Part shown: positions 33,294 through 57,710 of the stretch, in pieces | Numbering within the stretch: the stretch's first letter is position 1 | Layout of the letters: every line of letters starts with the position of its first letter | Source of the DNA: a virus | DNA length: 57,710 bases | Direction: 5' to 3' (one strand) | Virus record (IMG/VR): IMGVR_UViG_3300045988_104231 | Program-made: the position numbers and the translations under genes | Notes under the pieces: model-generated | What the model was told of the DNA's origin: nothing | What the model saw: only the letters and a program-made list of their open reading frames with translations | The model's database searches: none

Positions 33294-33473
33294 TTACTTG
33301 TTCAGTTTTACTCCCCTGTAGAGTTGTAATGCTCTTTTTCTTATCATGTAAGAATTAGGGGAATTAGTCATTCCCTTTAAGGCGTGTCTAATCGTTACAT
33401 CGGTTAATCCCGTGTCCTTGGCCAAGGCTCTTATTGAGCCATGCGGCACTATGATCTCTTCTAATCTTGCCAT
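33294..33473 (-). CDS. Small HTH protein (59 aa, below the ORF-track cutoff)
   Basis: Hand translation: MARLEEIIVPHGSIRALAKDTGLTDVTIRHALKGMTNSPNSYMIRKRALQLYRGVKLNK. Confidence 0.5.
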   Translation of the reverse strand: MARLEEIIVPHGSIRALAKDTGLTDVTIRHALKGMTNSPNSYMIRKRALQLYRGVKLNK

Positions 33474-33483
33474 ATCTTTTTAT

Positions 33484-33741
33484 TTATCTGTTCATATACG
33501 CTATAAGGCCGGCCTTGCTAAACACCCTTTTCCGGCCTTTATGAGCGTGAGGTATTTCCTTTATATGTTCCCTCAGATATCGGATAGATAGCTTGGTGAT
33601 CTTGGAGGCTTCATCGAAGCCAACGAACTCGTCCTCTTTCTGGGCCTCTTTCTCCAAAACGGACTCCACGATCCTTTTTACCTCCTTTCGCATGAGGGGA
33701 ATCAATTCCTCGGCTATAAGCCTTGCGTCGTTCCTTGTCAT
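33484..33741 (-). CDS. Excisionase/MerR-like HTH DNA-binding protein
   Basis: C-terminal FDEASKITKLSIRYLREHIKEIPHAHKGRKRVFSKAGLIAYM fits the Xis/AlpA-type HTH pattern. Confidence 0.55.
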   Translation of the reverse strand: MTRNDARLIAEELIPLMRKEVKRIVESVLEKEAQKEDEFVGFDEASKITKLSIRYLREHIKEIPHAHKGRKRVFSKAGLIAYMNR

Positions 33742-33746
33742 AGCGT

Positions 33747-33953
33747 TTACTTTAATCTCGTTACAATCACGTCATCAATGCGTCCCGCTGTTTGTATCGT
33801 AAAATCATATCCTTTAGTCTTCAAGTAATCCACACCCCTTTTTACCTTTAAGTATGGTATGGTCTTGTTTTTTATGATTGTGGGTTCTCCTATATTGAAT
33901 CCCAATAAGATTTCCTCCAACAATTCGGAGGTTGTCATGCTTGTCGTAATCAT
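33747..33953 (-). CDS. Hypothetical protein
   Basis: 68-aa ORF, overlap-coupled to the upstream gene. Confidence 0.45.
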   Translation of the reverse strand: MITTSMTTSELLEEILLGFNIGEPTIIKNKTIPYLKVKRGVDYLKTKGYDFTIQTAGRIDDVIVTRLK

Positions 33954-34147
33954 ATTATTTCTATTTTCACTTCGAGCGCATCACATATCTTCGCAAGGAT
34001 ATCTATCCCAACGGAGAATTTACCGTTCTCAACGTTGGAGATAGTTGCGGCTCGAAGGTTGGCAAGTTCGGCCAGTTGTCGCACCGTGTAGCATCTTTCC
34101 TTACGTATTTCGGCTATTCGTTTCCCTATTCGTTCACGTTCATTCAT
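33950..34147 (-). CDS. XRE/Cro-type HTH regulator
   Basis: IGKRIAEIRKERCYTVRQLAELANLRAATISNVENGK. Confidence 0.8.
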   Translation of the reverse strand: MNERERIGKRIAEIRKERCYTVRQLAELANLRAATISNVENGKFSVGIDILAKICDALEVKIEII

Positions 34148-34412
34148 TCAATCCCTCCTCTCTTACTATGTTTTCATCTTCCCACTCAGCCCAATCGCAA
34201 TACCATTGAGCCGCAGGTTTTATGATTTCCTTTTTTATCATTTCGGAATCATATTTGACATCAAGCGTGGCGCAATAATGTAACGCCGCAATCATTGGCT
34301 CTTTAATGCCAAATCTATTGGTATAGCTAAACTTTAATGTCGGAACATCCGGATTTAAGGCTACATCCTTCCTGCCAAATATTTCGATGATACTGGCAGA
34401 ACGTATGTGCAT
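34140..34412 (-). CDS. Hypothetical protein
   Basis: 90-aa ORF. Confidence 0.45.
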   Translation of the reverse strand: MHIRSASIIEIFGRKDVALNPDVPTLKFSYTNRFGIKEPMIAALHYCATLDVKYDSEMIKKEIIKPAAQWYCDWAEWEDENIVREEGLNE

Positions 34413-34529
34413 TATGACATTTCTCCCATATAGGGGATCCCCGCCTTTTTAGTGACCGGAACCTTCGATGAAGGCGAACTCGGGCAATGTTAAATTCATG
34501 ATATATGTCTTTGTTATCTTTTATCTCCA

Positions 34530-34715
34530 TTAGGCTATATCTTCTATCGCATAGTCGCCAGACGCAAAGGGGGCGAAATCTTCAACAATGGTAGCAATGC
34601 GCATTGCGTCCTCGTCAGATATTACGATTTCCATATTTTCATTACAAATCATTTCTATCCCATTATTTTCTAGAATCTCTAATAACTCGCTATTTTCGCA
34701 ATATAATGTTTTCAT
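34530..34715 (-). CDS. Hypothetical acidic small protein
   Basis: 61-aa ORF. Confidence 0.4.
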   Translation of the reverse strand: MKTLYCENSELLEILENNGIEMICNENMEIVISDEDAMRIATIVEDFAPFASGDYAIEDIA

Positions 34716-34756
34716 GTTTATTGTATTTATTTGATTATTAATTAATATAGATATAT

Positions 34757-34939
34757 TTATTTTTCAATCACTTCAAGATCATTTAAAATCTTGATAGCTT
34801 TTTCTTTCCCCAAGCTTGCACATTTCACAAGGGCCTCATAAGCGGACAGCCTATGACCTCCATTAATGCCGGCATAACGAAGAATTGAAATAAAACGAAT
34901 GTGAGAGATTGACTGCCCTTTATAAATGTAAGTTGTCAT
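34757..34939 (-). CDS. Hypothetical small protein
   Basis: 60-aa ORF, first gene downstream of the leftward promoter. Confidence 0.4.
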   Translation of the reverse strand: MTTYIYKGQSISHIRFISILRYAGINGGHRLSAYEALVKCASLGKEKAIKILNDLEVIEK

Positions 34940-34989
34940 GATATTATCGCTGAATTGTTACTGTTGCCACCAGCTCTATTGTTATGATG

Positions 34990-35021
34990 CAAAGATAAGC
35001 ATAATATTGTTTGCTACCAAA
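34990..35021 (-). promoter_or_regulatory. Leftward (early) Bacteroidota-type promoter
   Basis: Minus strand TTTG (35021-35018), 20 nt, TATCTTTG (34997-34990). Confidence 0.6.
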
Positions 35022-35125
35022 TAGCGTAACGGAAATATTTATAGAATTAACAACAATTAATATTCCAGCCCTGTGTTATCCTTCCATCCTTTTTTTGTTT
35101 GATTATATCATTATGTTTCCTTGTT

Positions 35126-35413
35126 TTATACGGGCGATGTGGTCTTGGTATACGGCGTGTTTTCTTCCTCTTTTTCCTCCAGTACCTTTTTAAGCTGATA
35201 TAGACTCAAAATATCATACTCAAATGTCGGATTGTCCCAATTTTTCCGGACAGAGTTCGTTTGGACAGAGATAAATTTTCGTAAGTCAAAGATATATTGA
35301 CATTGTGACAGTCTTATCTCGTTAAATGTTATCTCGTAGTTATCAAACCACGCAAGCAGTTTTTTTAGTTCCTCGTTCATGATATAAATGATTAACCCCG
35401 CGAATATACCCAA
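35126..35413 (-). CDS. Hypothetical protein
   Basis: 95-aa ORF at the divergent junction. Confidence 0.45.
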   Translation of the reverse strand: MGIFAGLIIYIMNEELKKLLAWFDNYEITFNEIRLSQCQYIFDLRKFISVQTNSVRKNWDNPTFEYDILSLYQLKKVLEEKEEENTPYTKTTSPV

Positions 35414-38348: not shown

Positions 38349-38460
38349 TTTGATGTTTATCCGAATATTGTTATATTTGCGGTAACATAAAAATAAAGAA
38401 ATTAGAGCCTAAGAGCCATACCCGGCGGGAGTCGTATCCTGCGGGGTATGGCTCTTTTTA
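38349..38460 (+). promoter_or_regulatory. Promoter + leader terminator-hairpin cassette 2 (ahead of portal)
   Basis: TTTG 38349-38352, 19 nt, TATATTTG 38372-38379. Hairpin arms 38411-38423 / 38444-38456 followed by TTTTT. ATG at 38471. Confidence 0.7.
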
Positions 38461-45170: not shown

Positions 45171-45767
45171 ATGGCGAATATATACACGACATGCGACGAG
45201 ATACCCTTATGCAAGTTCATCGAGATGTACAAGGGAAATCTTAACGCCCTTATAAAAGGAGGGAGGACCAAGCCCACCGATGGGGAGTTAAGGAAAGCGG
45301 CGATGGGGCTTATCGACGAGTATTCCGTTATAACCGGGAACAAGAATATCGCTATCGAGATAGAGGATCGGTCAAGGGTGGTGGATTGCAATATCAAGCT
45401 TATCCTGTTGGAGTCAGCGGATCATTTGATAGACGCTATGATGTACGCTGATGCTTCGGATATTCTTGGCAGGGTAGGTATCCGCATGCCGGAGGAGCCG
45501 GGAGAGCAAGATCTGATCGTCGCTAAAAAGAGAATCCAGTCCAAGATGTCACAGGTGAAATATAGCCTGAGCGTTCTGGATAGGAACAAGTCTAAGGTGG
45601 TAGACCCCAAGGATAAAGATTTCACCCGTGAGAGAATGATCGTGTCCACCTATTTCAAGATGCGTATCGACCCAGACACGTTCACCGCGGCTGAGTACGG
45701 GAATATGATAAGGATTATGTTTAACCAATTAGAGGACATGAAGAATTATGGCGGGAAACGAGACTAA
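45171..45767 (+). CDS. Candidate tail assembly chaperone (function from position only)
   Basis: 198-aa ORF immediately upstream of, and overlapping, the tape-measure gene. Confidence 0.4.
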   Translation: MANIYTTCDEIPLCKFIEMYKGNLNALIKGGRTKPTDGELRKAAMGLIDEYSVITGNKNIAIEIEDRSRVVDCNIKLILLESADHLIDAMMYADASDILGRVGIRMPEEPGEQDLIVAKKRIQSKMSQVKYSLSVLDRNKSKVVDPKDKDFTRERMIVSTYFKMRIDPDTFTAAEYGNMIRIMFNQLEDMKNYGGKRD

Positions 45768-48700
45768 GATCACTGATATAGTAGGGAAAGAGGCGTTTGA
45801 TCAACTGGAGCGTCTGGATAGGAAATTAGCGGATACGCAGAATGTCTATATCGGGTTGGTAAAAGAGATAGGGAAAGGGTTGACGATAAATCCCTCAAGC
45901 TTGTCAGAGTTGAACGCCAAGATCGAGGAGTACAAGAAAAATGTATCAGCGCTTAAAAGCACGATTGACACTCTCAATAAGACCAATGACCAGTACAAGA
46001 GAAAGATTGATGAACTGATAGAGGTTAACAAGAGATATGCGGAAGCGGCTGGGAGAGTTCAGAATAGTTTAGATCAATCATCCTCTTCCATAGCCAAGGA
46101 ATCAAACGCTATCTCGGAGAACATGAAAGCCAAGCAGCAAGAGGTTGTCATAAGTCAGGAATTGAAGGGACTCATTGACCATACATTGGGATCTAGGGAG
46201 GAGAATATACGCAGGGTCGCTCAAGAAAGGACGATATTGGCCCAACTATCCAAGGAGAAAAGCCAATTGAATAAAATGGAGAAAAGCGGGGCTATCTCAA
46301 CTAAAGATGCCGTGCAAAAGAGGCAGGATCTGGTAAGGTCTGAATTGCTTCATCGAGAATCCTTGAGAGAGCTGTTGAACATTCTTACGAATGAGACAAA
46401 AATGATCAACTCGGCCAACGATAGTTATCAAGAGCAATCGTTGCAATTGGAGAGGCTGAGAAAGGCGTATCGGATGCTTTCCACGGAAGCCGCTAACAGC
46501 AAGTTAGGGGTAGAGTTACAAAAGAATATAGCGGCTTTGGACACTCAGGTAAAATCTGTTGATAAAAGTCTGGGACAGCATCAGAGAAACGTGGGTAATT
46601 ATGTCTCCACTTGGGATGGAATGGGAAACGCAATCAATCAATTAACCCGTGAGTTTCCAGCATTCTCGGTATCGCTCCAGACCGGATTCCTCGCTATCTC
46701 TAACAATATCCCTATATTGGTCGACCAAATATCTCGGATAAGGAAGGAGAACGCCGCCTTACGTGAGGAGGGACTGAAAGGTGTTCCCGTATGGAAGCAA
46801 ATAGCTAAGTCCGCTTTGTCTTGGAATACCTTGTTGTCGGTTGGTATAACTCTACTTACCGTATATGGTAAGGATATCTTTGAGTGGGGTAAAAACTTAT
46901 TGTCATCCTCTAGCTCGGCTAAGGCCGCTTCGGAAGCCCAGAGAGACTTGAATTCATCCACCGGGGATTATGCCAAGGCTTTAAAGAACTCGACATCATC
47001 ATATGGGGAGAATCTTGTAACATTACGCAACTTACAAGCGGAATGGAATAATTTAGGAGATAATCTCAATAAGCAGAAGCAATTTATCATTGATAACGCC
47101 TCTGAGTTTAAGAAATTAGATGTGTCAGTTACGGATGTTAATGACGCTGAGAATCTGCTAGTAGATAATACGGATGCTTTTGTTAAAGCAATGGCTTTGA
47201 GAGCGCAAGCAACGGCTGCGCAAAAATTAGCTCAAGAAAAATATGCTGAGGCTTTACAAAAAAGGATTGAAGCCGAAAATCTACAAAAAAAAGCAGATGA
47301 GGCAAGAGAAAAAGGGCAATATGCGGCTACGGCTGTTATGCAAGATACTAGATTTGGCGTAAAATCAGTGAAAGAACTTGCTGAGGAGAATGCGAAGGCT
47401 ATAGAAGTGGATGTTAAATCTTTGAATGATCAAGCTGATGCTCTTGATGAGGCAGGATTCGCTTATTTCAATTATAACAAAAAGCAGATGGAAGCCGCAA
47501 GGAGTGAATTAGAGAGCGCAGGTATAAGAGAATCCTCTAACGAGGAGAAACTTAAACGACAGCAGGAGCAAATAGAACGAGAGGCCAAGCGTAGGGAGAA
47601 ATTAGAGATGGAGGCCGAACGGAATATTCAGGAGGATCGTCTTAATGTGATGGATGAGGGGTATAAGAAAGACCGTCTTCTCTTGGAACAATCTTTCCAG
47701 AAACGGATAGATGACGTAAAGACGAAAGGCGTAAGGGTTAATGAGCAAATCGAGGCTATTGAGGCTGAGAGAAGCAAGAGGTTGGCGGAATTCGACCGTA
47801 AGATCTCGGAGCAAAGGGCTAATGAGGAGGCTCAAAATCGTCTTGCGATTGCAGAAAAGGGAAGTTTGCAAGAGCTTGACGCTCGCTTGGATATATTGCA
47901 ACTACAAAAGGATAAAGAATTAAGAGAGGCGGACAAAACAGGCCAAGACAGGGCGTTGATAGAGGAAAAGTATCTAAAACTAATAGAGAATCTATATAAT
48001 GATTACGGAAAACGTCTTATGTCTACGGAGCAATCTCAGAACGAGATACTCCTTTCTCAAAGACAGATAGAGATAAACGAAGAGCTTAATGCCTTGACTA
48101 AACAATATGAGCAAGGTATTATCAAGAAAAAAGAGTATGAGAAACAGAAATCGGATCTGGAGCATCAGTATGCTATGGAGTCTTTACAAAGTCAATTAAG
48201 TATACTTGAATCAAATCTGTATTTGTTTGAAGGCGATGAGAGGCTAGAGAAAGAGAAGGAGATCGCTCGCCTCCGTGTTCAGTTATCGAAAGAGACCAGC
48301 GATAAAATCATAGAGGATGCCAAACGAGAGGAAGAGGAGCGAAAAAAAGTAGAACAGGCTAAAAAGCGCTTGATACAAGAATCGATCTCTGCTATCATAT
48401 CAATCGGTAATTCATTATTCCAGCGTCAAATAGATAATGTAGATGCGGAAATAGAGGCCAACCAAGAGGAGTATGACGCTAAGGTTGAGACTATAGACGC
48501 TCTTGCCGAGAAAGATATAATAACGACAGAGGAGGCCGAGGCCCGCAAGCGTGCGGCGGAGGAAGAGACCAGCCGCAAGAACAAGGAACTGGAGAAGAAA
48601 AAAGCTGAGTTGCAGACTAGACAGGCTAAGTTCCAGAAGTCTATAGATATAGCTCAGACTATTGCGGCCACAGCGCAAGCGATAATGGTAGCTTACAAAG

Positions 48701-49170
48701 ATGCGGGACCTATCGCTGGAGCTATCTTTGCGGCGATGATAGCGGCTACCGGAGCCGTGCAACTAGCCACGATCATAGCCCAGCCCATCCCCAAATACGC
48801 CCATGGTACCGACAATCACCCCGGCGGTCTGGCTATCGTTGGCGATGGAGGCCGTAGCGAGGCGGTACTGGTAGGCGATAAGGCGTACATTACCCCGGAT
48901 AAGCCCACCCTGCTGTCATTGCCTGCGGGAGCCGAGGTCGTTCCGGATCTCAATGATCCGGCCTTCCTTAGCCGCTTCGTGGATAACACGTATTGGCTTA
49001 CCCATAACAAGAAAGGCGAGCCGGTTCAGATCGTCAATAATTTCGATGCTGAAGGGATAATAAGGGCTAATAATGAGATAAAAAAAGAGATAGGCAAGCT
49101 ATCTAAAACCATATCCAAGGGTAGCAAGAACATCGATTTCGAGAATTACAAGAGATCGAGGATGAATTGA
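45748..49170 (+). CDS. Tail tape-measure protein
   Basis: 1,140 aa, overwhelmingly coiled-coil, with internal hydrophobic segments (FLAISNNIPILV, LLSVGITLLTV, AGAIFAAMIAATGAVQLATIIA). Confidence 0.85.
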   Translation: MAGNETKITDIVGKEAFDQLERLDRKLADTQNVYIGLVKEIGKGLTINPSSLSELNAKIEEYKKNVSALKSTIDTLNKTNDQYKRKIDELIEVNKRYAEAAGRVQNSLDQSSSSIAKESNAISENMKAKQQEVVISQELKGLIDHTLGSREENIRRVAQERTILAQLSKEKSQLNKMEKSGAISTKDAVQKRQDLVRSELLHRESLRELLNILTNETKMINSANDSYQEQSLQLERLRKAYRMLSTEAANSKLGVELQKNIAALDTQVKSVDKSLGQHQRNVGNYVSTWDGMGNAINQLTREFPAFSVSLQTGFLAISNNIPILVDQISRIRKENAALREEGLKGVPVWKQIAKSALSWNTLLSVGITLLTVYGKDIFEWGKNLLSSSSSAKAASEAQRDLNSSTGDYAKALKNSTSSYGENLVTLRNLQAEWNNLGDNLNKQKQFIIDNASEFKKLDVSVTDVNDAENLLVDNTDAFVKAMALRAQATAAQKLAQEKYAEALQKRIEAENLQKKADEAREKGQYAATAVMQDTRFGVKSVKELAEENAKAIEVDVKSLNDQADALDEAGFAYFNYNKKQMEAARSELESAGIRESSNEEKLKRQQEQIEREAKRREKLEMEAERNIQEDRLNVMDEGYKKDRLLLEQSFQKRIDDVKTKGVRVNEQIEAIEAERSKRLAEFDRKISEQRANEEAQNRLAIAEKGSLQELDARLDILQLQKDKELREADKTGQDRALIEEKYLKLIENLYNDYGKRLMSTEQSQNEILLSQRQIEINEELNALTKQYEQGIIKKKEYEKQKSDLEHQYAMESLQSQLSILESNLYLFEGDERLEKEKEIARLRVQLSKETSDKIIEDAKREEEERKKVEQAKKRLIQESISAIISIGNSLFQRQIDNVDAEIEANQEEYDAKVETIDALAEKDIITTEEAEARKRAAEEETSRKNKELEKKKAELQTRQAKFQKSIDIAQTIAATAQAIMVAYKDAGPIAGAIFAAMIAATGAVQLATIIAQPIPKYAHGTDNHPGGLAIVGDGGRSEAVLVGDKAYITPDKPTLLSLPAGAEVVPDLNDPAFLSRFVDNTYWLTHNKKGEPVQIVNNFDAEGIIRANNEIKKEIGKLSKTISKGSKNIDFENYKRSRMN

Positions 49171-49178
49171 GCGTAAAA

Positions 49179-49285
49179 CTTGCTTTTCTTATTCTTTCTA
49201 GTTATATTTGCTGGACATATAAGAAGACAGTAGAGCCTAAGAGCCATACCCAATAGAGTCACGTCTATGGGGTATGGCTCTTTTT
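49179..49285 (+). promoter_or_regulatory. Promoter + leader terminator-hairpin cassette 3 (opens the accessory island)
   Basis: CTTG 49179-49182, 20 nt, TATATTTG 49203-49210. Hairpin arms 49239-49251 / 49270-49282 have the same sequence as cassettes 1 and 2 but a different loop. Followed by T5. Confidence 0.65.
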
Positions 49286-49492
49286 GTTTTTACTGGTCAG
49301 CCTACCACGACAGGCTAGGAAGATTTTGGGCGACAGCGGTCGCTAACAGCCTCCTTGATACGATGTGTTGTGGCTCGTGTCGGGGAGGCTTTTTCATTAA
49401 GAGGTGCCAAAGTAATCAAAATAACAAAGTCGTTTTGATCTTGTGGCTAAAATTGCGGGAGAAAATATTTTGAACAATTAAAATTTTAAGAT

Positions 49493-49816
49493 ATGGAAGC
49501 AATTAAAATTTTTGAGAACGATCGTTTCGGTGAAGTGAGAGTAGCCGGGACTAATGAGAACCCTTTGTTCTGCTTGGTAGATATATGCAAGGCGGTCGAT
49601 ATAGCGAATAGCAGAAACGTGAAGAACAGGTTAGATGAAGATGACGTCCATCTGGTGGACATCATAGATAGTTTAGGTAGAACCCAACAAGCGGTATTTG
49701 TATCAGAAGCCGGGATGTATGATGCGGTATTAAAAAGCGATAGCCCAAAAGCTAGACCCTTCTCTCGTTGGATAACACACGAGGTTCTCCCTTCCATCCG
49801 TAAACATGGGGCGTAA
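49493..49816 (+). CDS. Stand-alone Bro-N domain protein (duplicate of the N-terminus of the 16886-17683 gene)
   Basis: 107 aa. Residues 9-101 are identical to the Bro/KilAC protein. Confidence 0.8.
   Translation: MEAIKIFENDRFGEVRVAGTNENPLFCLVDICKAVDIANSRNVKNRLDEDDVHLVDIIDSLGRTQQAVFVSEAGMYDAVLKSDSPKARPFSRWITHEVLPSIRKHGA
49515..49794. repeat. Right copy of the 280-bp perfect inverted repeat
   Basis: Reverse complement of 17382-17661. Confidence 0.9.
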
Positions 49817-49860
49817 ATCAAGCAATATAGAATATTTTTAATAGCTAAAAACTTAATAAT

Positions 49861-50601
49861 ATGGATAGTTTAGTATTTAAAGGCAATAATGGGCAAGTTG
49901 TTACTAATAGCTTGCTAGTAGCGGAGAAGTTTGGGAAAAGACATGCGGATGTAATTCGCTCAATCGAAAATTTACTAAAATCCTCTGATGAAGAACTGAA
50001 CGCAAAAATGCGTTTAGCTTTTGTATCAAACACTTATGAGGATTCTACCGGGAAAAGTAATCCTGTATACATTATGAATAGAAAAGGATTCTCTATCCTT
50101 GTTATGGGGTATAACGGGATTAAGGCTCTAAGGTTTAAGAATGATTTTTATGACGCTTTCGAAGAAATGGAGAAAGCGTTGAAAGAGCAAAGCAAACCTC
50201 TTTCATCCGCACAGATGTTTGCCATGCAAGCTAACATCAACTTGGAATATGAGAACAGGATATCCAATGTGGAAAAACGAATAGAAGCGATAGAACAAGA
50301 ACGAGAAGAAAATGGAAAACTCCTTTTGGCTATTCCTGTTTCAACGGAAAAGATACCGGAAATGAGTTTAAGAGATAAGATCAGACAGATGGTTAATAGA
50401 TACTCTTCCGCCCATAATGTGAAACAACAGGATGTTTGGCGCAAGATATACGATCAATTGTACTATCTATATCATATATCTATTCGTAGCTATAAGAAGA
50501 AAAACGGAGAGTCTAATTTGGATATCGCTGAGAAGCATCGTTTTATTGAGTATATCTACAATATTATCTCCAATATGATCAGAGAGAAAGGGGTTGCTTG
50601 A
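49861..50601 (+). CDS. Rha-family phage regulatory protein
   Basis: VVTNSLLVAEKFGKRHADVIRSIENLL...YIMNRKGFSILVMGYNG. Confidence 0.8.
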   Translation: MDSLVFKGNNGQVVTNSLLVAEKFGKRHADVIRSIENLLKSSDEELNAKMRLAFVSNTYEDSTGKSNPVYIMNRKGFSILVMGYNGIKALRFKNDFYDAFEEMEKALKEQSKPLSSAQMFAMQANINLEYENRISNVEKRIEAIEQEREENGKLLLAIPVSTEKIPEMSLRDKIRQMVNRYSSAHNVKQQDVWRKIYDQLYYLYHISIRSYKKKNGESNLDIAEKHRFIEYIYNIISNMIREKGVA

Positions 50602-50679
50602 TTATTATGGTTGCTCAAACAAAATATAGACATGATTTGGTTTAGTTTTCATAATCCTCCCTCATGTCGTGAGACAGCA

Positions 50680-50726
50680 AGGGGGATAAAAAATCCCCTC
50701 CAGAGCCTTTTGGATGGAGGGGATTT
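50680..50726 (-). terminator. Terminator for the LRR gene, located between convergent genes
   Basis: 12-bp stem AAATCCCCTCCA / TGGAGGGGATTT. On the minus strand it is followed by TTTT. Confidence 0.6.
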
Positions 50727-50735
50727 GAATTGGGT

Positions 50736-51323
50736 TTATAGCGAGATCTTGAATCTCTCTTTTCCGCATTCAATGATGTATTTGCCTTTTGGAAGGTTTA
50801 TACGGGTATCTTGACCATTGGATTTACCTTGATATCTCATGATTCCTTTGAAATCGTATACTCTAATATCAGTATTTTTGTCTATGTTTTTTAATATTAA
50901 ATATTTACCTATTCTTGAAATGGAAATTTCATGATAATCCTCATTAATAGATTGAATAGATACAGGAGAAGATGATAGGTGTTTTATATTATAATCTTTC
51001 CATAGATCGTGTTGAGCATATTCTTGAAAAAGTTCATCAGGAACATAAACATTTAATTCTTCATTCCAAATGTTTATCGAATTAGGATATATGAATACAG
51101 GATTCGATGATTTCAAGTACAAATTATCTATTTGCGTATCTATTGCTTCTTGTTCTATCTCCTCTAAAGTAGAAGGTAATATTATATTTCTAGTATGTTT
51201 TAAGTTGAAAAAAGCATGTTTTCTTATTGTCTTAATGTCTTCTGGTACTTGGCAAATTTTTTGGTTGGAAGCATTTGCGTATATAATGACATTTTTTTTC
51301 TTCATTTGATATAAGACATCCAT
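50736..51323 (-). CDS. C-terminal part of BspA-like LRR protein, ending in a T9SS C-terminal sorting domain
   Basis: LRR_5-like IPEDIKTIRKHAFFNLKHTRNIILPSTLEEIEQEAI. The tail DIRVYDFKGIMRYQGKSNGQDTRINLPKGKYIIECGKERFKISL fits the Por secretion tail pattern. Confidence 0.6.
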   Translation of the reverse strand: MDVLYQMKKKNVIIYANASNQKICQVPEDIKTIRKHAFFNLKHTRNIILPSTLEEIEQEAIDTQIDNLYLKSSNPVFIYPNSINIWNEELNVYVPDELFQEYAQHDLWKDYNIKHLSSSPVSIQSINEDYHEISISRIGKYLILKNIDKNTDIRVYDFKGIMRYQGKSNGQDTRINLPKGKYIIECGKERFKISL

Positions 51324-52149
51324 TTATAGATTCCAAAAATGGATTTTCTTTGGAAACGGTTATTTCTTTAAGGTCATATCCGCACGACAATCCTCCTTCT
51401 CCGATGTATCTTAATTTTTTTCCGATGTCTATTCTTTCAATTTTACTTAATCCAAATATCCAATTACCAAGCTCTTCCGTACTATCAGGTATACTAATAT
51501 ATTTTAAAGGACAATCCCAAAACGCATTATCGCCTATATAAGTTACTTTGCTGGGGATTTCTATTTTCGTGAGATTTTTACAACCGGAAAAAGCTTGCAT
51601 AGGTATATCTTGTATATTATCAGATAATCTAATATTTGTCAATGATTCAAGACTGTAAAAAACATGTTTGTCAATAAATTGAACGCTATCATACATGTAT
51701 ACACTTTGAAGTTTATCGCAATGCGATAATGCCCATTCAGAAATACCAACAAGGCTCTTTGGTAGTATAATCTTCTTTAATTTATCACATTCGCTAAATG
51801 CGTTATTTCCAAGTACGTCATTCTCCTCTATGCAGCAAAGATGATTTTCATTAATATAGTATCCATCTCCTCCCTTTCTTATATGAGCATCACTCATGTC
51901 TAATATGGCTAATTTCCCTTCTCTATTATCTATTCCGAATTGGCTTTTCCCCAACATATATCTGAGTGTGGCTATATCATCTGAGTTAATATATCCATTT
52001 AAAGTTAGATTAGTGATTTTAGAAATACTATCTCCTAATATTTTCGACAATGAACCGGCCTTATCTACTTCGATGAATGTTGAATCTTGATTATTCCCAA
52101 ATACATAGTTGGATAAAGAAATAAATAAAAAAAGTAATATTTTCCTCAT
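51232..52149 (-). CDS. N-terminal part of BspA-like leucine-rich-repeat protein with signal peptide
   Basis: MRKILLFLFISLSNYVFG signal peptide. Repeated ..I.IP.SV..I...AF..C..L.. units. The frame is lost at an A8 tract (plus-strand T8 at 51292-51299). Confidence 0.7.
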   Translation of the reverse strand: MRKILLFLFISLSNYVFGNNQDSTFIEVDKAGSLSKILGDSISKITNLTLNGYINSDDIATLRYMLGKSQFGIDNREGKLAILDMSDAHIRKGGDGYYINENHLCCIEENDVLGNNAFSECDKLKKIILPKSLVGISEWALSHCDKLQSVYMYDSVQFIDKHVFYSLESLTNIRLSDNIQDIPMQAFSGCKNLTKIEIPSKVTYIGDNAFWDCPLKYISIPDSTEELGNWIFGLSKIERIDIGKKLRYIGEGGLSCGYDLKEITVSKENPFLESINGCLISNEEKKCHYIRKCFQPKNLPSTRRH

Positions 52150-52178
52150 GACTTGATTTAGTTTAATTAATGATGAGA

Positions 52179-52210
52179 CAAAGGTAGATAATAGTGTTAA
52201 CAAAAGCAAA
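52179..52210 (-). promoter_or_regulatory. Bacteroidota-type promoter of the LRR gene
   Basis: Minus strand TTTG (52210-52207), 20 nt, TACCTTTG (52186-52179). Confidence 0.65.
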
Positions 52211-52273
52211 TAGTATAGAAGGGAATTACATGTTCGATAACATATTTCTTAATTTAAGTAGTACAAACCTTGT

Positions 52274-52552
52274 CTACCTCTTTTTTCCGAACAACTCGGA
52301 ATGACTACCAATTCTAAGCAAGTCGATTATTTCTCCGTCAATCCAAATAAGAAGAAAATCCCCTTCTATATGGCACTCCATACAACCTTTATACTCACCT
52401 TTCAACATGTGAGGTTTGTATTCTTGTGGAATCGGATGGTCATTTATAAGCAGATTTGCGATATATTCAAAAGCTGCGATTTTTTTGGGGAATTTCTGAA
52501 TACGTTTGAAATCTTTCTTAAACTGGCTTGTTGGGTGTAATTTCTTTTTCAC
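52274..52552 (-). CDS. yafQ: YafQ/RelE-family toxin
   Basis: FKKDFKRI...HMLKGEYKGCMECHIEGDFLLIW..DGEIIDLLRIGSHSELF. Confidence 0.85.
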   Translation of the reverse strand: MKKKLHPTSQFKKDFKRIQKFPKKIAAFEYIANLLINDHPIPQEYKPHMLKGEYKGCMECHIEGDFLLIWIDGEIIDLLRIGSHSELFGKKR

Positions 52553-52791
52553 TTCATTAATTCCTCCATCAAACTATCCACGCTGTCGAACGTTTCTTTA
52601 TTCTTGGTCGTGCGTGCTTCCCTTATAGCCGCTATCGTTTCCTCGTTTGGCTCGGAGTATACAGCGTCCATCAAGGTGCTCTCTACAAAATTATTCAAAC
52701 TCCTGTTCGCTTTCTTGGCTTGTTCCTGCAAGACTTGCAACAAGTCCTCACGTAAACGGAACGATGTTTGCTTTCTTATTACTGCTTCCAT
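52549..52791 (-). CDS. Ribbon-helix-helix antitoxin (DinJ/RelB-like partner)
   Basis: TSFRLREDLLQVLQEQAKKANRSLNNFVESTL RHH motif. 4-nt overlap with the toxin gene. Confidence 0.75.
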   Translation of the reverse strand: MEAVIRKQTSFRLREDLLQVLQEQAKKANRSLNNFVESTLMDAVYSEPNEETIAAIREARTTKNKETFDSVDSLMEELMK

Positions 52792-52816
52792 ATTACTTAT
52801 GTATTATATTGTATCG

Positions 52817-52847
52817 CAAAGGTAATGTATTGTATGCATAAAACAAA
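52817..52847 (-). promoter_or_regulatory. Bacteroidota-type promoter of the antitoxin-toxin operon
   Basis: Minus strand TTTG (52847-52844), 19 nt, TACCTTTG (52824-52817). Confidence 0.65.
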
Positions 52848-52883
52848 CTTTCATGATTTTTATTTAGAGGATTGCAGGTTATA

Positions 52884-53162
52884 TCATTCCATCTTAATCT
52901 TAACATCCACTTCAACAGGTATTGGTTTTTGACAATGGGGGCAAATGATCGTTTTGCTACTATTGATTTCATCAGAAAAGAAATCCCCGACTTTACACCC
53001 TATCACATTTGCTATCTTTTGAAGTGTTTCCACCGTTGGGTTTTTATTAATTGATTGAGATAAAGCACCTCGTGTTATAGGCTTACCGTTTTTGCTTTCC
53101 CATTCCGCAGCTATACGTTCGATAGTATAACCTTGAGCCTTAATAATTGATTTTATGTCCAT
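52884..53162 (-). CDS. XRE-family HTH repressor-like protein with C-terminal CxxC element
   Basis: ITRGALSQSINKNPTVETLQKIANVIGCKVGDFF HTH, then ICPHCQKPI. Confidence 0.7.
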   Translation of the reverse strand: MDIKSIIKAQGYTIERIAAEWESKNGKPITRGALSQSINKNPTVETLQKIANVIGCKVGDFFSDEINSSKTIICPHCQKPIPVEVDVKIKME

Positions 53163-53287
53163 CAGATGAATGTTTAGTTATTACTAACGGCAAAGATAAA
53201 TATAAAAATGATATATGATTAGGAATAACTATTCGAAATATAGTTTTTGATATATTTTAATTAAACATTGGACTTGTGTTAAAGATT

Positions 53288-53338
53288 AGTTAAACCTAAC
53301 GATCTACTTGTGTTTCGTTAGGTTTAACTATACATTTG
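53288..53338. promoter_or_regulatory. 14-bp perfect inverted repeat (candidate operator) abutting a rightward -7 box
   Basis: AGTTAAACCTAACG (53288-53301) / CGTTAGGTTTAACT (53316-53329), followed by TACATTTG at 53331-53338. A minus-strand TATCTTTG box at 53196-53189 lies ahead of the XRE gene. Confidence 0.55.
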
Positions 53339-53364
53339 CATCATCAAAATAAAACAACAGTACA

Positions 53365-53628
53365 ATGGCAACACAGAAATACAACAAGAGCGAGATCATG
53401 AAAGACGCATGGAGATTATTCAGACTTTACCGAAAATTCTCTTGGTCTTTTGGCAAGTGCCTTTCTATAGCATGGGATAATGCCAAGATAGAGATAAAAA
53501 ATAATGAGGCCAAGGCCAAGAGATTGGCAGAGGAAGAAGCTAGACGCATCGAGTATCGCAAGCATGTTGTCTTATCTCATGTCGGTATGGCTAGCCTTTA
53601 CGGTAACAGGGTTTATTCGGGTGATTGA
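53365..53628 (+). CDS. Hypothetical protein (Cro-position gene of the divergent pair)
   Basis: 87-aa ORF. Confidence 0.45.
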   Translation: MATQKYNKSEIMKDAWRLFRLYRKFSWSFGKCLSIAWDNAKIEIKNNEAKAKRLAEEEARRIEYRKHVVLSHVGMASLYGNRVYSGD

Positions 53629-53654
53629 TAACTATACATTAATAATATAAGGAT

Positions 53655-53915
53655 ATGGAAACGATAGAAGTATTGAAGAATGTGCAAAGGATTGCGTTGG
53701 AGTGTATGATCGGAAGGAAACCGGTACATATAAACGTAGGCGTAATGCCGGAGACGGGCGGTTTATGCGTCACCGTACAGGACAGATTTCACGAGGTGGT
53801 CTACATGGAGATATTCAATGACTGGATGCCGGATCACAAGGAATGGAATAAAAAGACCTACGATAGATTCATGAGCGTAATTAGCGACATGACTTGCGTA
53901 AGGCTTGCGGGATAA
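53655..53915 (+). CDS. Hypothetical protein
   Basis: 86-aa ORF. Confidence 0.45.
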   Translation: METIEVLKNVQRIALECMIGRKPVHINVGVMPETGGLCVTVQDRFHEVVYMEIFNDWMPDHKEWNKKTYDRFMSVISDMTCVRLAG

Positions 53916-54226
53916 CTCGAACGACGGGGAGAGGATCGGAAGTAGATGCCCCTCCGGTAATACGGCCGGAGGGTTTGGTGGAGTTATTTCAATGATAATT
54001 AAATGATTGCATGAAATAATAAGAAATAGGATGATTTTAGTATCTGATGGTATTATTGTTTATCTATCTGAAATACATTGATATAGAGTGTTAATAAAAT
54101 ACATTATTTAGAATGGTTCTAAATTAATGCGATTTTAGGTACCGTTATCTGTCCTTATCTATCCGTTTTGTTTTGTGCTTAAAATAAGGATGTTGTTTGA
54201 TTATTTTTTAATTATAAACTTTGCGC

Positions 54227-54421
54227 ATGGGAATACCAGAATTAAGCGGGAATAAGTTCTCCGCTATAGAGCAAAAGGAAGTCTTGGTCAAGTTGATGGA
54301 CTTTGACGGGGACAAGGAATTATGGATTCACTCGGAACTTGGTGGCAACACCATGACATTCGGGATGGAGGAAGCAAGGCGGTTAAGGGATTTCTTCAAC
54401 AGTCTCGATCTAAGGGACTAG
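54227..54421 (+). CDS. Hypothetical protein
   Basis: ATG at 54227 preferred to the TTG at 54221. Confidence 0.4.
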   Translation: MGIPELSGNKFSAIEQKEVLVKLMDFDGDKELWIHSELGGNTMTFGMEEARRLRDFFNSLDLRD

Positions 54422-54435
54422 AAGGATGGCCTTGT

Positions 54436-54460
54436 CGGGGTTCGATTCCCCGGCCACTAC
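54436..54460 (+). other. tRNA 3'-half-like fragment (T-arm plus 3' acceptor strand)
   Basis: CGGGG TTCGATT CCCCG GCCACTA C. No matching 5' acceptor strand is found upstream. Confidence 0.4.
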
Positions 54461-54549
54461 AATCAGTCAAAGTAAATCCCCGAAAGCGGAAGTGACTGAG
54501 CCGCTAACGGGGATATAATTAGTAATTCAAACAAAATTAAAACAAAGGT

Positions 54550-55173
54550 ATGAAAGATTTATCATTAAACAAAGAGACAATGAGTTCAATCGAAGTATCT
54601 GAACTTACAGGGAAACGTCATGATGCTATCTTGCGTGACATCAGAAACTTACTATGTCAAGGGGTAAACGCCCACAATTTTGTGGAGGTTGAATATGTAG
54701 ATAAAAAGGGAGAAGCAAGGCCTTGTTTCGAACTAACTAAGAAAGGATGCCTGATACTTGCTTCTGGGTATGACGCTAAACTTCGTGAAAAAATTATCGA
54801 TCGATGGGAAGAACTGGAACTGGACAAATCTCCGAAAACTTTATCCCCTGCCGAGATCATCCTCCAGCAATCTCGTCTTCTTGTTGAGAACGAGAGAAAG
54901 ATAAGAGAGCTAGAGGCGACAACCGTTAAACTTCAAAACGATCTTGAAGAGGTGAATCAGAGAACCACTGCAAACCTTAATCAATCCACCATTGTCGCTT
55001 ACGTTACTAGAAATAACATCAAGCTGGAAGTTACGAAATACGGTGCGATGGGACGAAAGGCTACATCTATTTGCAAGAAGCGAGGCATAGAGATCACCAA
55101 GATAAACGATGTTCGCTGGGGTATGGTAAGCGTTTATCCGGATAGCGTGCTGGACGAGGTGTTTAATAAGTAA
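54550..55173 (+). CDS. Second Rha-family phage regulatory protein
   Basis: MSSIEVSELTGKRHDAILRDIRNLL...ELTKKGCLILASGYDAKLREKIIDRWEELE. Confidence 0.8.
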   Translation: MKDLSLNKETMSSIEVSELTGKRHDAILRDIRNLLCQGVNAHNFVEVEYVDKKGEARPCFELTKKGCLILASGYDAKLREKIIDRWEELELDKSPKTLSPAEIILQQSRLLVENERKIRELEATTVKLQNDLEEVNQRTTANLNQSTIVAYVTRNNIKLEVTKYGAMGRKATSICKKRGIEITKINDVRWGMVSVYPDSVLDEVFNK

Positions 55174-55282
55174 ATTTTTGTGACCAAATAATTATTCGAG
55201 GTACGGCGTAAGTACGTACGGCCAAGGCTTTAACCTATTGTGACTTGAAAATAATTGTGAAATATTAAAAGATTGATTGAAT

Positions 55283-55579
55283 ATGAAAGAGAACGAGATT
55301 AAAAGCATCGTCGTGAAAGCCGACGGTAACGAGATCAAGGTTGATCACGCTCATGAGTTGGTAATAGGGAGCTTGACCATAACCCCGGAAATGATGAGAG
55401 AGATAAAGAGTATGTCCACTTGCCTGTTCTCTAAGGATATGGACGATATGATAGATACGCTTATCAATTTGAGTTGCGAGGGTAATTACGAGGACGGGTA
55501 TATCATGGACAAGATGAGGGCCGTGTCATGCGTGAGGGACTTCTTGAGGGATATCGAGAAATCAAGATCAAGGGCTTGA
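55283..55579 (+). CDS. Hypothetical protein
   Basis: About 98-aa ORF. ATG at 55283. Confidence 0.45.
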   Translation: MKENEIKSIVVKADGNEIKVDHAHELVIGSLTITPEMMREIKSMSTCLFSKDMDDMIDTLINLSCEGNYEDGYIMDKMRAVSCVRDFLRDIEKSRSRA

Positions 55580-55662
55580 TATTACGCAGACAATAGTTAT
55601 CTTTGTGACAGAGCCAAAGAGCCGTACCGGAGACGTATTTGTCCCCGGGCGGCTCTTCTTAT
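55575..55662 (+). promoter_or_regulatory. Promoter + leader hairpin cassette 4 (diverged copy, closes the island and sits ahead of the 643-aa tail gene)
   Basis: CTTG 55575-55578, 19 nt, TATCTTTG 55598-55605. AGAGCCAAAGAGCC leader. Imperfect hairpin 55617-55657. ATG at 55673. Confidence 0.6.
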
Positions 55663-55672
55663 TTATAAGCGT

Positions 55673-57604
55673 ATGATAAAAGCTGTATTATTGATAGGGG
55701 GGAAGAGGTACGACGTGACGGATCACCTCAAGAACTGGGAGGATGTGGAGATATCGGCTAAGAGGAAGGATCTTGGAGGTGTCGTTCGATCCTTCTCCAA
55801 CAAGTTCGAGTTCGTGAAGGGGGCATACGACCTTCTTGAGGCCGAGTACCTATCCAATTATACGAAAGCCTCGGCCATATTGGTGATAGGCGTGTTGAAC
55901 GATAGCTGGGGGTATAACGAGAAGTTTCGTTGCAAGCTCGATTTCTCCACGTACCAGAGCGACGGGTATACGATATCCATAAACGCCATTGATGATAGCG
56001 TAGCGTCTATCATCAACGCCAACAAGTCACAGGTATACGATATCCCGGTGTCGGAGCTAAAGGAGAACGTTTTGTATTATGACAGGATCTATCTTAACAA
56101 CAATACGAAATGGTCCATAAATCCAAATGTGGATCAAACGCAAGATGACGTATATGAGGTTATCATAAATACAAAAGACATATATACGCTATTGCCAATA
56201 ACTTATATAGATACAAATTTTGCCGTAAAGAACATAATAGATGTGTCGGATCAAATATTGAGTATCCATGAGGCTACTGGCGACAATTATATGATAAAAG
56301 GGATTACGCCACATCCTATAAAAATAAGAATTTCCTTCAGTATCAAAGCTGGTAAGACTAGTGAGGAGATCGTATTGGCTTTGTTTTTTGTTATACTAAA
56401 CAAGGGAGGGGATATTTTACGGGAAGAAAGGACCTACATACCATTATCGGATACATATATAAATATAGATAAGACATTTGACATATCATTAAATCCGGAT
56501 GATAGATTTGCCGTTTATTTCAACTCGGCGGGAGGTCATAGCACTGATATTCATTTGACAATTAAGGATGTAAAAGACATATCCGTATCTTATATAGGTC
56601 GAAATAAGCCGGTGGAAATAGACACTTTCTCTCCTAAAAAACTATTATCCTCGTTATTGTCAAGGATGGGTGTGTCATTGTCCAGCGATATCGTCTCCGG
56701 TTCCATGCCCATACCTTGGATGATGGCCGCTGAGAGCGTGAGAGGAATAAAGGATGCGAAGGTCCATACGTCCTTCTCCAAGTTCTGTGATTTCGCCAAG
56801 GCGTTGCTTGGGTATGATTACGAGATACTGGATAATAGCGTGCGTTTCCGGCATATGAATGATTTCTTCGTCAATGAGACGAAAGAATTGGATCACGTGA
56901 GCAATATGGAGCTATCCGTGGATGAGTCGTTGATATACTCTGGGATTGAAATTGGATTCGACAAGCAGGACTATGATGAGATAAACGGGCGTGACGAGTT
57001 TCACTTCAAGAGCAGTTTCAGCACGGGATTGGACATAAAGGACAACATATTGTCATTGATAAGCCCGTATAGGGCAGATTGCTACGGATTGGAGTTCCTC
57101 GCTAACGAGCGTGACGAGGAATCCAAGGATACGGATTCCGACAATGACATATTCATTGCCCACGCTAGGAAAGATGGGGATAGATTAGTTCTGGTAAGAG
57201 AAGAGAATGGGGGAGCTATATATGCCGTTACGGGAGTATTGTTCCCCGACACTATCTTTAACGCCCCCTACTCGCCGAGAAATATGCTTCTCGTCAATAA
57301 GGAAAGGCTCGGGATATGCACGGATTACCTGTCTTTCACGGCCTCGGACGGAAACTCCTCAATATCGATAGGAGGCGTATCGGAGACCCTTCCTATATCC
57401 CTGCCGGTTAACGACCGGAGGATTAGGATCGATAAGGTGTCCTTGGAGACCCCGGGGTTATCCCCGTTCCCGGGTAATTACAGGGGCAAATTATCGTTCT
57501 CGTACGCAGGGAGATCGTACGAGGGATGGGTTAGCGAGATAACGGAGAAGATAGGGAAATACCAAACGGCATCCTATTCGCTGATATTGTCTAAAATTAC
57601 ATGA
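55673..57604 (+). CDS. Large tail protein (distal-tail / tail-tip candidate; function from position only)
   Basis: 643-aa ORF. It is the first structural gene after the tape measure once the island is ignored. Confidence 0.5.
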   Translation: MIKAVLLIGGKRYDVTDHLKNWEDVEISAKRKDLGGVVRSFSNKFEFVKGAYDLLEAEYLSNYTKASAILVIGVLNDSWGYNEKFRCKLDFSTYQSDGYTISINAIDDSVASIINANKSQVYDIPVSELKENVLYYDRIYLNNNTKWSINPNVDQTQDDVYEVIINTKDIYTLLPITYIDTNFAVKNIIDVSDQILSIHEATGDNYMIKGITPHPIKIRISFSIKAGKTSEEIVLALFFVILNKGGDILREERTYIPLSDTYINIDKTFDISLNPDDRFAVYFNSAGGHSTDIHLTIKDVKDISVSYIGRNKPVEIDTFSPKKLLSSLLSRMGVSLSSDIVSGSMPIPWMMAAESVRGIKDAKVHTSFSKFCDFAKALLGYDYEILDNSVRFRHMNDFFVNETKELDHVSNMELSVDESLIYSGIEIGFDKQDYDEINGRDEFHFKSSFSTGLDIKDNILSLISPYRADCYGLEFLANERDEESKDTDSDNDIFIAHARKDGDRLVLVREENGGAIYAVTGVLFPDTIFNAPYSPRNMLLVNKERLGICTDYLSFTASDGNSSISIGGVSETLPISLPVNDRRIRIDKVSLETPGLSPFPGNYRGKLSFSYAGRSYEGWVSEITEKIGKYQTASYSLILSKIT

Positions 57605-57610: not shown

Positions 57611-57710
57611 TTTGACAATTGATCCTTATCCCCTATATTTGTAGGACATAACAAAAAAGAAATTAGAGCCTAAGAGCCATACCCGGCGGGAGTCGTATCC
57701 TGCGGGGTAT
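57611..57710 (+). promoter_or_regulatory. Promoter + leader hairpin cassette 1 (continues into nt 1-50)
   Basis: TTTG 57611-57614, 19 nt, TATATTTG 57634-57641, then AAAGAAATTAGAGCCTAAGAGCCATACCC... identical to cassette 2. Confidence 0.7.

Follow-up and report, generated by a model that had tools for sequence, protein, structure and literature searches.

The viral DNA considered here (IMG/VR record IMGVR_UViG_3300045988_104231) is a complete, circularly closed phage genome of 57,710 nt, referred to as a whole as the window, in which bases 1-41 repeat bases 57670-57710 and whose close homologs carry the label Parabacteroides distasonis. Within it, an island of 6,502 nt (49171-55672), comprising 12 genes in at least five transcription units, is found between the stop codon of the gene encoding the tape measure protein (TMP), at 49170, and the next tail gene, which is regarded as distal tail (Dit)-like. 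We are highly confident that this island is a moron locus, fixed in its site and hypervariable in its content, and consider it likely that an XRE-type gene and its predicted operators form a switch at the locus. Taken as a whole, the interpretation that we favor, with moderate confidence, is that this is a hypervariable moron locus, fixed in the lineage, which contains a local switch of a repressor/antirepressor-like kind and is an analog of immI of phage P22, distinct from the primary immunity center of the phage; a true antirepressor role in the manner of immI is proposed by analogy and more tentatively, its chance being judged slightly less than even. A first-pass annotation, made from the sequence alone, had placed the block at these same coordinates, which are correct, and had listed in it Bro-N, two Rha genes, a leucine-rich repeat (LRR) gene, a YafQ/ribbon-helix-helix (RHH) pair, an XRE gene and small open reading frames (ORFs). 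Pfam and PHROG agree with this list, and the small ORFs without assigned function number four (orf87, orf86, orf66 and orf100) instead of the three counted at first. The two flanks of the island are the following:

45748-49170, plus strand: TMP gene, 1140 aa, left flank, outside the island; matches four tape-measure PHROGs, E 1e-13 to 2e-6
55673-57604, plus strand: first tail gene after the TMP gene, right flank, Dit-like by position only; matches phrog_22157 (unknown function), E 1e-109

The label Dit-like is taken from position alone, the gene being the first after the TMP region in all relatives, and the protein gave no match against PDB sequences, either as a single protein or as an 11-sequence profile.

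In 32 distant relatives the junction carries no island, in accordance with the first description of the block as an insertion between tape measure and distal tail: the TMP gene, with or without a gene of ~190 aa, is directly joined to the Dit-like gene, with gaps of 0-3 bp, or 2-5 bp in the fecal contigs. These relatives are Pseudanabaena phage Pan5, in which a TMP-like gene abuts a homolog of the 643-aa Dit-like protein, three human fecal contigs (L034-36; Dit-like proteins 33-37% identical) with the order TMP, ~190-aa gene and Dit-like gene, gaps of 2-5 bp and a ~190-aa gene homologous to that at 45171-45767 of the window, and 28 IMG/VR contigs (L162-189) of the same order (TMP 42-43%, Dit-like 37-39% identical). 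An island is found at the TMP/Dit-like site in every one of the close relatives with both flanks, ~40 in number, namely 24 Dit-anchored loci, ~12 more that are TMP-anchored (Dit-like proteins 44-58% identical) and four ENA contigs, one of them of 331 kb. Because the distant relatives are without it and every close relative has it, the island is a clade-specific insertion that was later fixed, and not an odd insertion in this one genome. Three of the 28 distant IMG/VR contigs have a single extra KilA-N gene after the TMP gene, intact in L181 (10845-11504) and L184 and truncated in L164 (10845-11186), which shares 43% identity (E 8e-62) with the gene farthest left in the islands of six close relatives; this suggests that the island grew by accretion and that the single post-TMP KilA-N gene may be a proto-island. 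The literature on BV01/Salyersviridae held nothing on an island between TMP and Dit.

The islands of the close relatives measure 4.8-8.9 kb, with GC contents of 0.35-0.39, and the 25 that were mapped show ~19 layouts, all built on one scaffold on which independent gene calls and Pfam agree:

left arm, plus strand: Bro-N, with or without KilA-N and Rha246
center, minus strand: one or two toxin-antitoxin (TA) modules and one or two genes for secreted proteins or lipoproteins, ending at XRE
right arm, plus strand: orf87, orf86, sometimes orf66, one Rha+ANT, KilA-N+ANT or Bro-N+ANT gene, and orf100
TA modules in the islands: a 156-aa unknown protein with a Panacea-domain protein; a HicB-like protein; YafQ with RHH
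secreted, lipoprotein and other cargo in the islands: a Big_2 protein of 503 aa, several unknown lipoproteins, YbjQ-like, HNH and, in the window, LRR

The outcome that the first-pass annotation had named as contrary to its view, relatives all carrying the same genes at this site with late-gene expression kinetics, is half seen, every close relative having an island of this scaffold at the site, with contents that vary. In a per-base conservation map over 32 relatives shared and unique blocks alternate, the 3' end of the TMP gene being kept in 30/32 and the Rha246 region covered in ~17/32, with the Bro-N body (49560-49800), the LRR gene and the second Rha gene (Rha207) unique to this genome (0/32 each). 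Such a mosaic block structure might also be produced if the junction of two exchangeable modules, with repeated cassettes on either side, were no more than a permissive hot spot of recombination, in which unrelated mobile genes accumulate and decay and no function is coordinated; an insertion sequence (DDE_Tnp_1 transposase) located directly after the TMP gene in L192/L193 (1836-2936), a frameshifted LRR gene, a truncated Bro-N, the truncated KilA-N of L164 and a frameshifted Rha in L022 would all be in agreement with it. We consider this explanation very improbable, in view of a gene order and strand layout that are the same in 25/25 islands, of the almost universal retention of XRE, orf86 (25/25) and orf100 (92-94% identical in 23/25), and of the promoter boxes and the strict covariation of XRE and operator described below.

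A moron in the sense of Juhala and Hendrix is expected to be missing from the corresponding site of some related phages, to deviate in base composition and to bring a promoter and a terminator of its own. The 32 distant relatives lack the island and ~40 close ones have it, among which single cargo genes vary, and the GC profile, a check proposed with the first-pass annotation, gave 36.9% for the island versus 44.6% for the remaining genome. Own promoters and terminators are found, at the motif level, for the LRR, RHH-YafQ, XRE and orf87 units and not for Bro-N/Rha. Promoters were scored as a TAnnTTTG (-7) box located 10-55 nt upstream of the start codon, again at the motif level; the box is found upstream of XRE in 25/25 islands, of orf87 in the 23/23 that carry it and of RHH in 11/11, and also before the first gene of most units encoding secreted proteins or lipoproteins, and it precedes 0/68 Bro-N/Rha/KilA-N genes across relatives and 1/23 late genes of this genome. 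A sigma-70 promoter scan, which is uninformative for Bacteroidetes, returned 24 sites versus 22.7 expected. In the window the box lies 26-30 nt upstream of the start codon of four island units, LRR (TACCTTTG at 52179-52186, with TTTG at -33), RHH-YafQ (TACCTTTG at 52817-52824), XRE (TATCTTTG at 53191-53198) and orf87 (TACATTTG at 53331-53338), so that the first-pass claim of at least three genes with the same box holds for the first two, the others having different variants. TACCTTTG occurs five times in the genome versus 1.6 expected, three of them in the island, where the third copy (54543-54550, minus strand) precedes no gene. Outside the island, and as had been claimed, TACCTTTG is found 61 nt upstream of a hicA (63 aa)/hicB (134 aa) pair (11669-12409), a second TA system. 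Judged by these motifs, the minus-strand cargo appears to behave like classical morons and the antirepressor-like genes appear to depend on upstream promoters. Since the left Bro-N/Rha pair has no -7 box of its own and is located behind a late-type promoter and terminator cassette, its expression outside the late program is not indicated, and the earlier proposal of own host-type promoters stands for the LRR, RHH-YafQ, XRE and orf87 units and not for Bro-N/Rha/KilA-N genes.

The putative switch is made up of a repressor gene and a rightward unit, separated by a short spacer:

52884-53162, minus strand: XRE-type helix-turn-helix (HTH) protein (XRE92), 92 aa, with a C-terminal CPxC...IKVE tail; HTH_3 E 1e-4, phrog_3 E 9e-6, PDB 3b7h E 0.003
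53175-53187/53219-53231 and 53287-53302/53315-53330: predicted operator region, four half-sites TAGTTAwwmCTAAC as two inverted pairs, from a repeat search
53331-53915, plus strand: rightward unit, with the -7 box TACATTTG, orf87 (53365-53628) and orf86 (53655-53915), and a hairpin (53950-53973) beyond them

The half-sites are placed in the region that separates the -7 box of XRE92 from the divergent one of orf87, and one pair, a perfect repeat of 16 nt, directly adjoins the box of orf87. The XRE gene, found in 25/25 islands, exists as at least nine alleles, whose HTH parts are as low as 32% identical and which have the CPxCG...IKVE tail in common. Each allele is accompanied in the spacer by its own repeated palindromes, for instance ACAAGATATATCTTGT three times, or ATATAGCATGnATGCTATAT, and the same allele is always found with the same spacer, even when a different orf87 allele lies alongside. 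Palindromes that co-vary with the XRE allele across relatives bear out the first description of an XRE gene facing a divergent promoter/operator, and they have the signature of a co-evolving repressor-operator pair, from which we infer DNA binding by XRE. The operator motif is found nowhere else in the genome than in the XRE-orf87 spacer (53173-53330, ~160 bp), and for this reason XRE92 looks like a local switch and not like a master repressor.

This confinement also bears on the proposal of the first-pass annotation that the island is the immunity/lysogeny center of the phage, that is, a primary control center displaced into the tail module, with XRE92 as a CI-equivalent master repressor. A second long repressor gene is absent from the genome, the allelic diversification of XRE together with its operators resembles that of heteroimmune phages, and the TA and surface genes downstream on the XRE strand recall cI-rexAB, all of which, together with the palindromic operators at a divergent promoter, would fit such a center. 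Nevertheless, we find it improbable, as the motif is not found at any early or late promoter, the island has neither integrase nor excisionase, a 65-aa XRE/Cro-like gene is present in the early region (33950-34147), and the lysogeny module of relatives is located upstream of terS, 13-20 kb from the island. In fact, 68/80 terS-anchored relatives have an integrase gene 2-3 kb upstream of terS, often at a contig end, and 13/16 contigs holding both the island and the terS region have it, the other three being without enough upstream sequence. A CI-like repressor is seen in a few relatives (BF1-TP2, L052 and L053), and in L006/L053 and Bacteroides phage BF1-TP2 it is a protein of 278 aa encoded beside this integrase, which in the early region of BF1-TP2 is a tyrosine integrase; the same position in the window (32941-34535) holds tRNA-Arg and small HTH genes.

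No integrase or CI-like repressor was found in this genome by tblastn with the BF1-TP2 integrase and repressor or by Pfam on the large early ORFs, and in relatives such as L041, L045 and L053 the integrase that is absent here lies between the tRNA-Arg region and terS. Likewise, Pfam, PHROG and tblastn gave no recombinase in the island, where one would be expected if it were an integrative island. Since most relatives have an integrase, and Dit-like homologs or prophage copies are found on large contigs (0.3-0.58 Mb), the family is temperate and this genome an integrase-less variant of it. Among the species-representative genomes, the sole match is a contig of 12.6 kb from the isolate P. distasonis NM39_I3 (NODE_78, L038), whose coverage of 673x suggests that the phage was actively replicating, or extrachromosomal, in that culture.

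Beyond orf86, the right arm continues with three further features:

54221-54465, plus strand: orf66 and a tRNA-3'-like fragment (T-arm 54437-54451), a module 95-99% conserved in 10 relatives
54550-55173, plus strand: second Rha-family protein (Rha207), 207 aa; Phage_pRha E 1.8e-21
55283-55579, plus strand: orf100, 98 aa from ATG, conserved, just upstream of cassette 4

In relatives the slot of Rha207 is always filled by a single gene of the Rha, KilA-N or Bro-N class, in most cases with an ANT domain, and orf100 gave no family matches. Homologs of orf87 and orf86 are confined to this lineage, and their AlphaFold2 models (pLDDT 75 and 66) gave no Foldseek match below E 0.1. The N-terminal half of orf87 shares similarity with the NCBIfam family AcrIIA3 (E 2e-6), at 27.7 bits versus a cutoff of 70, a score that does not make it a member. 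Loci of the acr-aca kind typically comprise an HTH regulator with promoter palindromes, and the rightward operon might accordingly be viewed as an early, acr-like anti-defense or host-takeover operon, with XRE92 as an Aca-like autoregulator and the Bro-N/Rha/KilA-N proteins as counter-defense or prophage-interference factors. The fast divergence of orf87 alleles (50-100% identical) and the retention of the locus in this integrase-less genome could be understood in such terms, but XRE is divergent and not inside the operon, orf86 and orf100 are nearly invariant, unlike typical anti-defense genes, and no structural matches were obtained, while PADLOC found no defense system among the island proteins, its only marginal match being the HNH protein of a relative; with the AcrIIA3 score as it stands, we hold an acr-like operon to be quite unlikely. 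The first-pass annotation had also reported a tRNA 3' fragment. After orf66, a T-arm and an acceptor-like 3' strand are indeed found, but nothing else of a tRNA: ARAGORN gave no tRNA in this island or in 16 relatives, and Rfam matched a tmRNA T-arm at E 0.033. The fragment was considered as an att site and rejected, being internal, limited to the T-arm, carried along with the orf66 module and without a recombinase in the island.

On the minus strand, downstream of XRE, the island of the window carries two units:

50736-52149, minus strand: BspA-type LRR gene, in two ORFs (51232-52149 and 50736-51323); LRR_5 E 9e-53
52274-52791, minus strand: type II TA operon, a putative RHH/Arc-like antitoxin of 80 aa (52549-52791) and a YafQ toxin (52274-52552), with a 4-nt overlap

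The LRR gene was first described as very AT-rich and secreted, and a GC content of 30.3% and an N-terminus that, judged by eye, is signal-peptide-like speak for both, but a 1-nt frameshift, read from the sequence of the A8 run at 51292-51299 (A8 on the minus strand), divides the gene between two ORFs, so that an intact BspA-type surface protein is not encoded. When one A is removed from the run, the 305-aa and 195-aa ORFs join and the LRR pattern is continuous; the frameshift could represent a sequencing error, phase variation or a pseudogene. A C-terminal sorting domain of the type IX secretion system seemed plausible by eye in the C-terminal ORF and was rejected, no NCBIfam or Pfam match being obtained. 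The YafQ assignment is firm (YafQ_toxin E 2.4e-29, 101.9 bits versus a curated cutoff of 30), and the putative antitoxin has only weak Arc-like or HicB matches (E 4e-5 to 2e-3), below thresholds. The antitoxin gene precedes and overlaps that of the toxin, the order expected for type II TA systems, and the pair is found in 11/25 islands, each time with the -7 box.

The left arm, on the opposite strand, is composed of two genes, the first of which has its counterpart in the early region:

49493-49816, plus strand: Bro-N-only protein, 107 aa; Pfam Bro-N E 1.5e-19, phrog_130 Ant E 1e-39
17373-17684, minus strand: donor, the N-terminal Bro-N part of the early 265-aa Ant gene (16886-17683)
49861-50601, plus strand: Rha-family regulator or antirepressor-like protein (Rha246), 246 aa; Phage_pRha E 2.9e-25, phrog_373, phrog_518
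50691-50726: hairpin with A-run and T-run flanks, bidirectional-terminator-like, between the convergent Rha246 and LRR genes; from the predicted fold of 50595-50740

The duplication of Bro-N already claimed is confirmed, bases 49492-49803 being an inverted copy, 97% identical, of 17373-17684 (312 bp), and the Bro-N body of the island appears to have been copied from the early ant gene of the phage itself. The inverted repeat looks like gene conversion, and through it the intervening 32 kb could be inverted. Rha246 has copies 95-99% identical in many relatives. The Bro-N and Rha246 pair also occurs, at 96% nucleotide identity, between structural genes of BF1-TP2 (L194, 9082-10179), a Bacteroides fragilis phage that is structurally unrelated, and the pair moves as a two-gene module.

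The borders of the island are formed by two of four same-strand cassettes (38366-38460, 49203-49287, 55598-55662 and 57635-57710/1-50), which are located upstream, in this order, of the portal gene, of the island, of the Dit-like gene and of the gene that follows the latter. All follow one plan, a Bacteroidetes-type promoter (TTTG at -33; -7 box TATATTTG, in copy 4 TATCTTTG), a conserved leader of ~25 nt (ACATAA..AAGAAATTAGAGCCTAAGAGCC) ending in AGAGCC(T/A)AAGAGCC, and a very stable hairpin with a T-run, from which the start codon of the late gene is 10-15 nt away. That copies 3 and 4 bracket the island, as stated in the first-pass annotation, is confirmed by the sequences:

49203-49287, plus strand: cassette copy 3, with the -7 box TATATTTG (49203-49210), leader ACATATAAGAAGACAGTAGAGCCTAAGAGCC, hairpin (49239-49283) and T-run; predicted fold -42.4 kcal/mol, z -6.5
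49348-49395, plus strand: second terminator-like hairpin with T-run, after copy 3 and upstream of Bro-N; fold -36.4 kcal/mol, z -4.3
55598-55662, plus strand: cassette copy 4, with the -7 box TATCTTTG (55598-55605), AGAGCCAAAGAGCC, hairpin and T-rich tail, 10 nt before the Dit-like ATG; predicted fold -30.8 kcal/mol, z -4.3

Cassette 3 is found at the left border of the island in 24/25 relatives and the core motif of cassette 4 at the right border in 22/25, and the distant relatives are without either; Rfam gave no match for the two copies. Because the promoter precedes a terminator-like hairpin, and by analogy with PR'-tR' of lambda, the arrangement suggests regulated, antitermination-controlled late units rather than simple terminators. 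Cassette 4 shows a compensatory change in its stem, and the hairpin loop of cassette 3 is inverted between L023 and L020 (island positions ~85-105; GATAGATTCACGTCTATC versus GATAGACGTGAATCTATC). On the two sides of the island the tail genes differ in their conservation, TMP C-termini being 84-99% identical, yet Dit-like proteins 44-99% (L132, L133 and L145-L158 versus L005-L032), and the island appears to mark the module-swap boundary for the distal tail. Further downstream, after the tail-fiber genes of L190/L191 (~21147 onward), a reverse transcriptase gene (RVT_1) was observed, possibly part of a diversity-generating retroelement.

Based on these features, the island would be a large compound moron, placed where the module for head and tail shaft meets the exchangeable distal-tail module in a family of temperate Parabacteroides siphophages. 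From the promoter motifs we infer that the self-promoted minus-strand units, on the downstream side of XRE, are probably transcribed from promoters of the host type for as long as the genome is resident, and their products would provide addiction, defense or a change of the cell surface. XRE would bind the palindromes between the two divergent promoters and control both its own gene and the rightward operon running from orf87 and orf86 to the Rha/ANT-type gene and orf100, and the left Bro-N/Rha pair, with no promoter of its own, is located behind a late-type cassette. The whole would then constitute a secondary, antirepressor-controlling immunity region, with exclusion genes, inside the late operon.

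Several observations weigh against this interpretation. The XRE assignment is weak, below the Pfam gathering score, antirepressor function is a family label only, with Ant, Mnt and Arc of P22 in other families, and the models of orf87 and orf86 show no RHH or other DNA-binding fold. The hairpin after orf86 may leave the Rha207 gene outside the reach of the promoter that XRE would control, the promoters are consensus predictions and the terminators fold predictions, and the LRR cargo is broken by its frameshift. This genome also has no integrase, and no CI-like repressor on which an antirepressor could act. In a bolder version, which we consider doubtful, the locus would be a second, immI-like immunity region in which at least nine XRE-operator specificities gate ANT/Rha/KilA-N antirepressors whose targets are the repressors beside the integrase, in the same prophage or in co-resident ones, while the cassettes meter transcription into the host-range module and the island serves as the recombination joint for swaps of that module.

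The remainder of the genome is arranged in two blocks:

from terS (35630), plus strand: rightward genes, namely terS, terL, portal, major head protein and TMP, then across the origin into the tail-fiber genes
16062-35413, minus strand: leftward early block, with DnaB, two methyltransferases, an FtsK/PD-(D/E)XK protein, the 265-aa Ant and three tRNAs

Close to the island, the ~190-aa gene (45171-45767) lies before the TMP gene here and in Pan5, and between the TMP and Dit-like genes in the sister clades of fecal and IMG/VR contigs; with a position that differs between clades, it has been transposed within the tail module. In the early block, a 203-aa protein (ORF 30996-31607, minus strand) contains ~11 tandem copies of a 24-nt unit (31075-31362) encoding an 8-aa repeat, and this ORF is adjoined by an odd tRNA of undetermined anticodon (30924-30991).

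Hardly any study has addressed the control of lysogeny, or lysogenic conversion, in phages of gut Bacteroidales, for which this locus offers a compact and very common test bed, with hundreds of metagenome copies, including prophages in P. distasonis chromosomes. It supplies a natural allelic series of repressor-operator pairs, and its catalog of swappable cargo (TA modules, Big_2 and LRR proteins, lipoproteins) may alter host surface, phage resistance and gut fitness. The TMP/Dit junction is, moreover, the point at which distal-tail, that is, host-range, modules are exchanged. For annotation, the integrase-proximal module should be located before such a block is named the immunity region. If the immI-like reading is true, the region would add a new level of regulation to the induction of prophages and the cross-talk between them in gut Bacteroidales, and the logic of the P22-type ant moron would recur in an unrelated phage lineage and host phylum.

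Among known systems, the cI-rexA-rexB arrangement of lambda has exclusion genes downstream of the repressor on the same strand, with the repressor facing a divergent promoter. Likewise, accessory (exclusion or TA) genes are found here downstream on the repressor strand, with a divergent promoter, but each downstream unit has its own -7 box, the operators are confined to the locus and the genes are not beside those for integrase or replication. A parallel to cI-rexA-rexB was also noted for phage epsilon34 (PMC2629481). With acr-aca operons the locus shares a small, fast-evolving first gene, an HTH regulator with palindromes and the weak AcrIIA3 similarity of orf87; it differs in that this similarity is far below the family cutoff and in that the regulator is divergent and not co-transcribed. 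Classical tail-operon morons such as HK97 gene 15 and lambda lom (PMC3594210) resemble the island in being extra DNA relative to related phages, with deviant GC and a site in the tail operon, and in having a promoter and terminator per unit and probable envelope or exclusion roles. In contrast to the 12 genes and at least five units found here, with a scaffold and a switch, these morons are single small genes, and HK97 gene 15 is located before the TMP gene, between it and the tail chaperone gene (PMC3594210), whereas the island follows it.

The closest parallel in layout is the ant moron or immI region of P22-like phages (mnt-arc-ant, with sieA), a hypervariable late-operon block upstream of a tail gene, in which a repressor is divergent from the antirepressor operon and an exclusion gene is included, and of which 10 types were found in 16 genomes (PMC2629481). 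Both loci are hypervariable blocks in the late operon by a tail gene (~19 layouts in 25 islands here), both have a small repressor gene, putative in the island, divergent from an operon with an antirepressor-type gene, which in the island the hairpin after orf86 may set apart, and in both exclusion or conversion genes lie alongside, with a possible effect on read-through into the downstream tail gene. They differ in host and site, the island belonging to a siphovirus of Bacteroidota and to the TMP-Dit junction and the P22-like block lying upstream of the tailspike gene; in the repressor, which is of the XRE-type HTH class here and a ribbon-helix-helix protein (Mnt/Arc) there; and in the antirepressor-type proteins, which here have Rha, Bro-N, KilA-N and ANT (KilAC) domains with no homology to P22 Ant in Pfam or PHROG. 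The island is also much larger, with TA systems, envelope proteins and flanking promoter and hairpin cassettes. Going by this comparison, the locus may work like immI without being a member of the immI family.

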